In this document: positions 7,632-7,650 of the stretch, one piece after another
How the letters are laid out: every line of letters begins with the position of its first letter
How positions within the stretch are numbered: position 1 is the stretch's first letter
Assembly: GCA_014435945.1 (NCBI GenBank)
Contig: GCA_014435945.1_4088.1
Origin: a phage
DNA: 64,000 nucleotides
Reading direction: 5' to 3' (one strand)
Position numbers and translations under genes: made by a program
The notes under the pieces: model-generated
The model's input: only the letters and a program-made list of their open reading frames with translations
Database searches by the model: none
What the model was told of the DNA's origin: nothing

Positions 7632-7650
7632 CTAAATAATGTATATAAAC
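7632..7650 (+). promoter_or_regulatory. putative late promoter motif (CTAAATAatgTATATAAAC)
   Basis: TAAATA-N3-TATA motif shared with other structural-gene upstream regions. Confidence 0.4.

Follow-up and report, generated by a model that had tools for sequence, protein, structure and literature searches.

TAAATA-core motifs upstream of virion genes as probable T4-type late promoters in a jumbo phage related to vB_Ec-M-J

The motif TAAATA-N3-4-TATA, which recurs upstream of structural genes in the 64,000-nt stretch of phage DNA analyzed here (hereafter the window), very probably marks the T4-type late promoters of this phage, as judged from sequence comparison. TAAATA would form the promoter core, and the downstream block would lie around the start of transcription. 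An earlier note on this DNA had proposed the motif as a late-promoter consensus, and this proposal is supported by the orientation of the sites, the class of genes that they precede, their absence from early spacers, their conservation across phages, the avoidance of the hexamer elsewhere in the genome, and the presence of a gp55-like factor. The two halves of the motif had, however, been assigned wrongly: the second half was likened to the T4 late promoter and TAAATA was taken for a conserved upstream half-site, whereas the T4 box TATAAATA is matched by the first half, and TAAATA itself corresponds to the T4-like -10 core.

Results

Motif sites in the window

The window belongs to a jumbo coliphage of the genus Asteriusvirus. 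Across 8 kb, it shares 99.7% identity with Escherichia phage vB_Ec-M-J of the same genus (OQ718158, 378 kb), with identities of about 87% to PBECO4 and 121Q and about 70-72% to RaK2, Munch, CBB, GAP32, and Yersinia phage fHe-Yen9-04. Its first position corresponds to about position 118,237 of the vB_Ec-M-J record, and it covers a block of neck, tail, fiber, and baseplate genes. Genome-wide tests were run on the full record of this 99.7%-identical phage, which has a unique genome of 357 kb, using a gene map built here (584 ORFs) that reproduced the deposited annotation almost exactly; 9.8% of the genome is intergenic. Labels such as "virion structural" are database annotations and do not stem from proteomics of the window phage. 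The literature searched yielded neither a promoter analysis of Asteriusvirus nor start-site, RNA-seq, or timing data for Asteriusvirus, RaK2-like phages, or phAPEC6.

Eight sites had been named at the outset, and all eight (8/8) carry TAAATA in the expected place and on the expected strand. Seven of them also conform strictly to TAAATA-N3-4-TATA; the tube-A site lacks N3-4-TATA. Across the window, the strict motif occurs 8 times against an expectation of 1.20 ± 1.09, a count that is reached in none of 100 dinucleotide shuffles, and seven of these eight matches are intergenic and aimed at the next gene, 32-62 nt away. The relaxed form TAAATA-N3-5-YATA is found 11 times (3.2 ± 1.8 expected), and bare TAAATA is depleted, with 39 copies compared with 90 ± 9 expected.

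On the plus strand, the putative late promoter of the head-tail adaptor gene (7670-8461) reads TAAATA atg TATATA at 7633-7647, with a strict match at 7633-7645 and a predicted start at ~7643-7645. That of the tail sheath gene (9559-12222) is likewise strict (TAAATA agac TATA, 9503-9516), with a predicted start at A9514. Tail tube gene A (12610-13296) is preceded by TAAATA at 12569-12574, within a site (12569-12582) that continues as at ATAAAGA and is without a TATA box, and tail tube gene B (13386-14162) by a strict match at 13346-13358, located 10 nt past a terminator (13313-13336). Several candidates on this strand were absent from the earlier list. One of them (12267-12279, TAAATA cgt TATG) lies 17 nt past the sheath terminator (12229-12250). 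A small ORF that is annotated in a relative (12307-12453) starts 35 nt after this candidate. Another addition is found in the end of a preceding gene (16279-16284, +), 29 nt before the virion protein gene at 16313, and similar gene-end sites are present at 16801-16806 (before 16850) and 18904-18909 (before 18943).

On the minus strand, putative late promoters precede the giant fiber gene 29300-35020 (35074-35087, strict), which has a terminator just upstream at 35127-35151, the giant fiber gene 35170-40086 (40138-40151, strict), the collagen-like fiber gene (44431-44444, strict), and the virion protein gene 48590-50086 (50110-50123, strict). Back to back with the last of these promoters lies a divergent, perfect sigma-70 promoter (50129-50156, +). 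The two giant-fiber sites share a duplicated 22-nt block that is identical at 21 of 22 positions, with diverged flanks, and hence are not fully independent of each other. A site at 28388-28402 (-; TAAATA cttaa TATA), new to the list, would serve ORF 26398-28362, which encodes 654 aa and adjoins the fiber genes. The true start of the collagen-like fiber gene is ATG 44402, not TTG 44438. Upstream of it, a candidate divergent late promoter, also newly listed, consists of TAAATA only, with no YATA, at 44475-44480 (+), 32 nt before the virion protein gene 44512-45009. A further newly listed candidate at 62525-62530 (-; aTAAATA aatc AAAT) belongs to the gene of a 3,3xx-aa virion protein, whose true start is likely ATG 62488, with GGAG before it. 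The remaining strict match, at 41679-41692 (-), lies inside a tailspike-like gene, 583 nt from the next start, and is probably due to chance or a minor internal promoter.

A conserved core and a position-specific second block

We compared eight phages from at least four genera (the window phage, PBECO4, A4, EJP2, RaK2, Munch, CBB, and fHe-Yen9-04). All eight (8/8) have an invariant TAAATA in front of the adaptor, sheath, tube-A, and tube-B genes, while the flanks diverge. The second block is gene-specific and partly conserved across this set: the sheath site keeps TAAATA-N4-TATA-cGAATA and the tube-A site TAAATA-N2-3-TAAAGA, and the tube-B site keeps gcTAAATA with (T/A)ATA variants in its second block. 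The TAAATA of the sheath gene is also present in Vibrio phage 2.275.O and in the Agrobacterium jumbo phage Atu_ph07.

Among non-paralog sites, the base before TAAATA is A in 61% and T in 6%, and the base two before TAAATA is variable, as in T4 relatives. Information content at -15 to -1 relative to TAAATA is about 0, apart from general T-richness. This T-richness often represents the tail of a terminator. Downstream of intergenic TAAATA, YATA peaks at spacings of 3, 4, and 5 (8, 12, and 5 of 47 sites, respectively) and is near background at other spacings; after coding TAAATA it is found in 6 of 84 cases (7%). Roughly half of the non-paralog sites have YATA at a spacing of 3-5, and A occupies the sixth position past TAAATA in 61% of sites, a position at which C is never found. 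The reversed arrangement TATA-N3-4-TAAATA occurs 7 times in the genome, compared with 31 for the forward order. YATA falls in the AT-rich stretch surrounding the predicted start and amounts to a sharpened form of the start-region preference of T4. It varies between genes and phages and does not have the T that invariably ends a sigma-70 -10 hexamer.

Sigma-70 promoters consist of TTGACA and TATAAT separated by 16-18 bp, with an invariant A at -11 and an invariant T at -7. No -35 element or TG extension was found at the motif sites, and scans of the structural regions returned no sigma-70-type match of at least 10/12 overlapping a motif site; sigma-70-type matches overall were fewer in these regions than in shuffles. 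Second-block hexamers also vary in their last base (TATATA, TATACG, TATATG, TATACC, and CATACT). With no -35 element and no conserved last base in the second block, we rejected a sigma-70 promoter identity for the motif sites.

A more elaborate alternative, essentially the layout of the earlier note, is that the downstream TATA(A/T)(T/A) constitutes the real -10 element, read by host sigma-70 or by a phage sigma factor, with TAAATA in an auxiliary position at about -21 to -16, where it would be bound by an activator or act like an extended -10/UP element. The RCC1-paralog promoters and tube B, which read TAAATA-N3-TATAAT with a perfect -10 hexamer, would accommodate such an arrangement, and the phage does encode a second sigma factor, the RpoD-like EcMJ_505, with regions 2 and 3. 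Nevertheless, we consider this alternative unlikely. Any of the four bases is found at the sixth position of the presumed hexamer, and the tube-A site carries TAAAGA in its place, whereas TAAATA is invariant across genera; the spacing between the two blocks varies from 3 to 5 nt; and the absence of a -35 element, a TG extension, and any match of at least 10/12 applies here too. In the paralog array, a start 7 nt past TATAAT would hit the Shine-Dalgarno sequence itself. Moreover, the genome-wide purge described below concerns TAAATA alone, and T4 promoters likewise have an AT-rich segment past the box, which does not serve them as a -10 element (PMC2988020).

Genomic distribution and genes served

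The 357-kb unique genome contains 31 strict matches. Rather than being equally frequent in coding regions, 27 of the 31 fall within intergenic DNA, which makes up 9.8% of the genome. Of these 27, 25 are oriented toward a start at most 120 nt away and 2 are otherwise intergenic; the other 4 matches are coding-sense, and none is antisense. When all k-mers were ranked, TAAATA emerged as the top 6-mer of oriented upstream spacers (58 of its 185 genomic copies) and ATAAATA as the top 7-mer (29 of 50 copies). A first enrichment score (z = 21.7) was inflated because TAAATA is depleted in coding DNA; relative to intergenic composition, its excess in the later genome is ~2.3-fold (58 vs. 23-31 expected), so some of the sites consisting of TAAATA only are probably not promoters. 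In intergenic DNA, the hexamer has a 3:1 orientation bias (58 copies vs. 17 of its reverse complement). By strand, the intergenic sites divide into 22 on the minus and 13 on the plus strand.

Nor is the hexamer equally frequent before early genes. None of the 89 spacers in the early first 96 kb, which comprise the terminal repeat and arrays of small genes, holds TAAATA, compared with 58 of 165 spacers elsewhere (Fisher p = 2e-13), and the number of copies expected in these early spacers is 8-13. Sigma-70-type sequences (TTGACA-N16-18-TATAAT) show the opposite distribution, the first 25 kb holding 12 of the 18 intergenic ones, each of them on the plus strand. These first-25-kb sites cluster in the terminal-repeat early region. 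We also considered TTTCAGTAC as an element associated with late promoters and rejected it: it reflects an excess of AGTACT throughout the genome, and it also occurs in the spacer of early sigma-70-type promoters, hence is not specific to late promoters.

The genome holds 43 relaxed sites. According to database annotation, virion genes make up nearly all of the genes downstream of them, including those for the adaptor, sheath, tube, four fibers, baseplate wedge, tape measure, and major capsid, along with approximately nine labeled "virion structural protein." An array of RCC1-repeat paralogs is also among the downstream genes, and TAAATAtagTATAAT is located 27 nt before each of their starts. 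Relaxed sites also precede two homing endonucleases and a few hypothetical genes, and no replication or nucleotide-metabolism gene was found behind any of the 43.

Genome-wide avoidance of the hexamer

Scored by a maximal-order Markov model, no hexamer is more strongly depleted than TAAATA antisense to genes (29 vs. 168 expected, z = -10.7), which comes ahead of the near-absent restriction palindromes CTGCAG, CAGCTG, GGTACC, and CCATGG; sense-strand TAAATA is the third most depleted (77 vs. 153 expected). Among 15 hexamers of the same composition, it is the rarest by far. Across the genome, coding-sense copies are overrepresented in the interval 15-70 nt ahead of the following start codon (18 of 84 vs. 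5.1 expected, p = 2e-6). Some of the coding copies would hence be promoters that lie within the final part of the gene before. This avoidance, strongest in the antisense direction, fits what would be expected of a promoter that needs little beyond TAAATA.

The direction of the avoidance also bears on the idea that TAAATA acts in the 5' leader of the RNA, as a processing site, stability element, or translational enhancer. The gene orientation of the motif and its fixed short distance to the start codon would suit such a role, and sequence-specific mRNA processing exists in T4 (PMC3014915). However, the depletion is strongest antisense, which is hard to account for with an RNA signal and is expected for a promoter; the motif corresponds to a DNA element, that of the late promoters in the T4 family, and the genome encodes a gp55 homolog. 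In addition, because the motif often directly follows a terminator, little upstream RNA would carry it. We therefore regard a role in RNA as very improbable. Least credible of all, and contradicted by the data, is the view that the motif has no function and results from the AT-richness of intergenic DNA, from the T-tracts of terminators, and from duplicated genes: the intergenic DNA is indeed AT-rich, the TAAATA excess is only ~2.3-fold, and the two fiber sites and the paralog array are duplicates, but early spacers of similar composition are devoid of the hexamer (0/89 spacers; 8-13 copies expected), its orientation is biased 3:1 (58 vs. 17), TAAATA is invariant in eight phages with diverged flanks, and the second block is position-specific, with few matches in reversed order (7 vs. 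31).

A gp55-like factor encoded near the window

In the 99.7%-identical genome, a gene ~9 kb to the right of the window encodes EcMJ_325 (279 aa), annotated as "sigma factor for late transcription." The protein matches the T4 gp55 family phrog_234 with E = 1e-16; T4 gp55 itself falls into phrog_234 (E = 3e-69) and gives a reciprocal match to the jumbo-phage family phrog_12791 (E = 5e-7). In a pairwise BLASTP comparison, EcMJ_325 and T4 gp55 are 25% identical over 121 aa (E = 2e-4), and their N-termini align (YLNNADLLREI against YVNNKELLQAI). The gene neighborhood is comparable too, with homologs of SbcD and SbcC following EcMJ_325 and T4 gene 55 lying near genes 47 and 46. EcMJ_325 is larger than T4 gp55 (279 vs. 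185 aa), with an insertion of ~110 aa, and it does not have the clamp-binding motif LDFL found at the C-termini of T4 gp55 and gp33. A sequence search of the PDB with EcMJ_325 yielded only spurious matches.

Of the gp55- and gp33-like late factors for which the earlier note had suggested a search, the former thus has a counterpart in EcMJ_325, and the latter was not found by phmmer among the 584 ORFs. The same search returned no match for T4 gp45, while gp44 does match EcMJ_412. Seven replication-module proteins of 181-281 aa were considered as possible clamps, and in a comparison with PHROGs each was assigned to a family of unknown function. For CBB, gp33 and gp45 were similarly not detected (PMC5259590); using sensitive methods, Iyer et al. 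2021 reported gp33 and PCNA-type clamp orthologs for this phage group (PMC7824862). Because phmmer returned neither gp33 nor gp45 and EcMJ_325 has a ~110-aa insertion and no LDFL motif, the T4 activation mechanism may not carry over to this phage. EcMJ_200 (127 aa) ends in LLDFLRNL, like the clamp-binding tails of T4, and otherwise has no similarity to gp33; we note it as a lead only.

Predicted hairpins enclosing the adaptor and sheath promoters

At two of the promoters, the sequence on the 5' side is predicted to pair with the ribosome-binding region of the downstream gene. The hairpin enclosing the adaptor promoter (7625-7664, +) is formed by AGCACCTC (7625-7632), which directly abuts TAAATA, and GAGGTGCT (7657-7664), which contains the adaptor Shine-Dalgarno sequence. 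In a consensus fold of the eight phages, this stem comprises 8 pairs, 3 of them with compensatory changes, and the duplex has an energy of -14.7 kcal/mol. Around the sheath promoter (9492-9555, +), AAATCCTTCAA (9492-9502) pairs with TTGGAGGATTT (9545-9555), which covers the sheath Shine-Dalgarno sequence GGAGG; here the consensus fold has 11 pairs in 8/8 phages with only G-U wobble changes, and the duplex energy is -13.8 kcal/mol. The modest covariation of these hairpins is due to the Shine-Dalgarno arm itself being constrained. Over 45 sites, the pairing of arms with their cognate initiation regions is stronger than with non-cognate ones (permutation p = 0.005), a result that is driven by a subset of the sites. 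A third strong hairpin, at 50118 (-), was not counted; its 5' arm is the complement of the -35 box of the divergent perfect sigma-70 promoter (50129-50156).

In the T4 genes e, soc, 49, and I-TevI, the ribosome-binding site is sequestered by a hairpin in early read-through RNA, which masks this RNA from translation; the late promoter lies inside the 5' arm of the hairpin, and the transcripts that begin there escape the masking (PMC3014915). As in gene e, the adaptor and sheath sequences 5' of TAAATA pair with the Shine-Dalgarno region in the predicted structures. Unlike in the gene e group, the predicted gating would here act on major structural genes, and the covariation is limited. The arrangement of the hairpins would place the start of transcription between the two arms, that is, downstream of TAAATA.

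Discussion

Taken as late promoters of the T4 type, the sites suggest the following scheme, for which we infer the late timing, the pairing of sigma factor and promoter, the exact start site, and the translational gating. During late infection, the host RNA polymerase core would carry the gp55-like protein as a minimal sigma factor. The -10-type element read by this factor would be TAAATA (usually within ATAAATA or CTAAATA), located at about -11 to -6 and unaccompanied by a -35 element. The DNA would then melt through the AT-rich segment just past TAAATA, and transcription would start ~6 nt after the last A of the hexamer, within the (T/C)ATA located 3-5 nt from the box. The resulting 5' leaders would be ~20-57 nt long and would belong to the adaptor, sheath, tube, fiber, baseplate, capsid, and other virion genes, on either strand. 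With the promoter often placed right after a terminator (12229-12250 before 12267, 13313-13336 before 13346, and, on the minus strand, 35127-35151 before 35087), such genes could form self-contained late units. At the adaptor and sheath genes, an anti-Shine-Dalgarno 5' arm would mask the ribosome-binding site in read-through RNA, and RNA begun at the late promoter, being without this arm, would be translated, as at T4 gene e.

A more far-reaching possibility, which we put forward only tentatively and think rather doubtful, is that RaK2-like jumbo phages use a modified T4 system. In such a system, a bipartite promoter, with a TAAATA core and, 3-5 nt downstream, a position-specific (T/C)ATA initiator, would be served by an enlarged gp55 homolog with a ~110-aa insertion and no clamp tail, late transcription would be uncoupled from the replication clamp, and the hexamer would by itself be potent enough to have been purged genome-wide, most of all antisense to genes.

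The T4 late promoter, which is read by gp55 together with gp33 and the gp45 sliding clamp, has TATAAATA at -13 to -6, with the T at -13 being poorly conserved in relatives; the Aeh1 late promoter has CTAAATA from -12, and those of RB49, KVP40, and S-PM2 have A or T at -13 (PMC1524935). T4 late promoters have no -35 element, and an AT-rich melting segment lies just downstream of the box (PMC2988020). Within 68 kb of T4, we found 28 (T/A)ATAAATA sites, of which 16 have TA at a spacing of 3 or 4 and 17 have A as the sixth base. Several of them, such as that of gene 18 with TATAAATAtatTAAAG, resemble the jumbo-phage sites. The likeness between the two systems hence extends from the six identical 3' bases TAAATA, the preference for A at -12 (61%), and the absence of a -35 element to the AT-rich segment with TA 3-4 nt past the box and the A at the predicted +1; in both, promoters precede virion genes on either strand, and the gp55 homolog comes with a conserved neighborhood. 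Unlike in T4, the T at -13 is not conserved in the window phage, and the downstream YATA is more position-specific. With Aeh1-type variants, the sites share an invariant TAAATA core with two variable bases upstream, and CTAAATA, as in Aeh1, is frequent here (adaptor, tube B, and both giant fibers). The phages with these variants are T4-like, of roughly 160-250 kb, and have recognizable gp33 and gp45 (PMC1524935). The likeness to sigma-70 promoters lies in the second block, which is sometimes TATAAT.

The closest precedent comes from Buttimer et al. 2017, who used MEME to describe a "promoter 3" with ATAAATA and an A/T-rich downstream part at 35 sites before CBB structural genes (PMC5259590). 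The motif was also noted in GAP32, and this MEME-based prediction was compared to the T4 late promoter (PMC5259590). CBB and GAP32 belong to the same clade as the window phage and have the same motif before the same gene classes, with Porf_201, 204, 205, and 206 (adaptor, sheath, tube) aligning directly; they differ in belonging to genera other than Asteriusvirus, and the promoters are a computational prediction there as here. The PA5oct study listed only sigma-70-like promoters. What is new beyond the CBB/GAP32 report is the position-specific second block, the avoidance of the hexamer, the cross-genus footprint, and the hairpin context, and these additions are modest. As the mechanism is that of textbook T4 and the motif had already been predicted in sister genera, current understanding of late transcription is unchanged.

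The definition is nonetheless usable for annotating late promoters in Asteriusvirus and related jumbo coliphages, which are used in work on phage therapy and biocontrol. With it, late transcription units can be delimited, true start codons chosen, and small late ORFs that lack annotation recognized. The TAAATA core of the T4 late promoter has been kept across very distant relatives, ranging from Vibrio to Agrobacterium jumbo phages. The genome-wide avoidance of the same hexamer, in turn, provides a clean example of selection against spurious promoters.

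Distribution of the probable late promoter core

The hexamer TAAATA, the core of the predicted T4-type late promoters, is purged throughout the genome, with 39 copies in the window against 90 expected. Antisense to genes, no other hexamer is as strongly depleted (29 against 168 expected). The restriction palindromes CTGCAG, CAGCTG, GGTACC and CCATGG are nearly missing, with 0-2 copies in 357 kb.

Several arrangements of the motif are found elsewhere in the genome. About 14 paralogs with RCC1 repeats form an array (L009:906-19385 in the numbered sequence pieces of the genome; 333-352 kb in the record of Escherichia phage vB_Ec-M-J, OQ718158), and nearly all of them have, 27 nt before the start, a near-identical cassette in which a terminator-like T-tract is followed by TAAATAtagTATAATgaataaAGGAGG. 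In front of a virion protein gene, two facing TAAATA-N-GTATAAAT motifs share a single palindrome (L007:218-255; record 232518-232555). A further strong motif, aTAAATAtacTATATAAT (L005:15-20), lies 31 nt upstream of a 390-codon ORF on the minus strand (L004:48812-49984), which has a good coding score and is absent from the OQ718158 annotation.

Leaders and start codons of late genes

The hairpins predicted in the leaders of the adaptor (7625-7664) and sheath (9492-9555) genes would gate translation to late transcripts in the style of T4 gene e. Directly downstream of the predicted sheath start is a small palindrome, CGAAT-ata-ATTCG (9517-9529), which is kept in other genera as CGAATATTCG and may fold into a stem-loop at the 5' end of the late sheath mRNA. 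Beyond the sheath gene come, in this order, a bidirectional terminator (12229-12250), a TAAATA (12267) and a 48-codon ORF (12307-12453), which is annotated in the relative and too short for the cut-off of the ORF list.

The starts given by the longest ORFs are probably wrong at three genes (62488-62518, 44402-44438 and 7655-7670), where the longer versions would run into promoters. The likely starts are ATG 62488 for the giant virion protein, with GGAG 8 nt upstream, ATG 44402 for the collagen-like fibre and 7670 for the adaptor.

A speculative candidate for a late co-activator is EcMJ_200, a protein of 127 aa (L004:31228-31611, plus strand) whose C-terminus, LLDFLRNL, resembles the clamp-binding tails of T4 gp33 (TLDFLL) and gp55 (SLDFLY). 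Because EcMJ_200 has no similarity to gp33 besides this tail, the assignment is speculative.

Sigma-70-type promoters and the AGTACT palindrome

A promoter on the plus strand (50129-50156) matches the sigma-70 consensus perfectly, with TTGACA-16-TATAAT plus a TG extension, and stands back to back with a late promoter on the minus strand (50110-50123). This sigma-70 promoter serves the gene for a Lon-like protease (50195-52483), which is surrounded by late genes. Early sigma-70-type promoters (L003:388-420, L003:13042-13075 and L008:9828-9860) share a fixed spacer, TTGAC-N8-TTCAGTACTG-TATAAT, which places an AGTACT palindrome immediately upstream of the -10 hexamer.

AGTACT itself is in massive excess both in the window and in the genome pieces L001-L016, with 139 sites in the window (for example 120-125, 7462-7467 and 23841-23846) against 23 +/- 5 expected. 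Across the 357-kb genome it outnumbers every other hexamer (983 sites). The palindrome occurs in all three reading frames, has twice the density between genes, and is frequently embedded in CAGTACTG or TTCAGTACTGAA. Possible roles include a modification target, a site for a DNA-binding protein or a recombination signal; a literature search on the excess found nothing. Every enterobacterial Rak2-like phage sampled has a density of 2-3.5 AGTACT sites per kb, whereas Vibrio and Agrobacterium relatives have 0-0.3 and T4 only 0.08 per kb.
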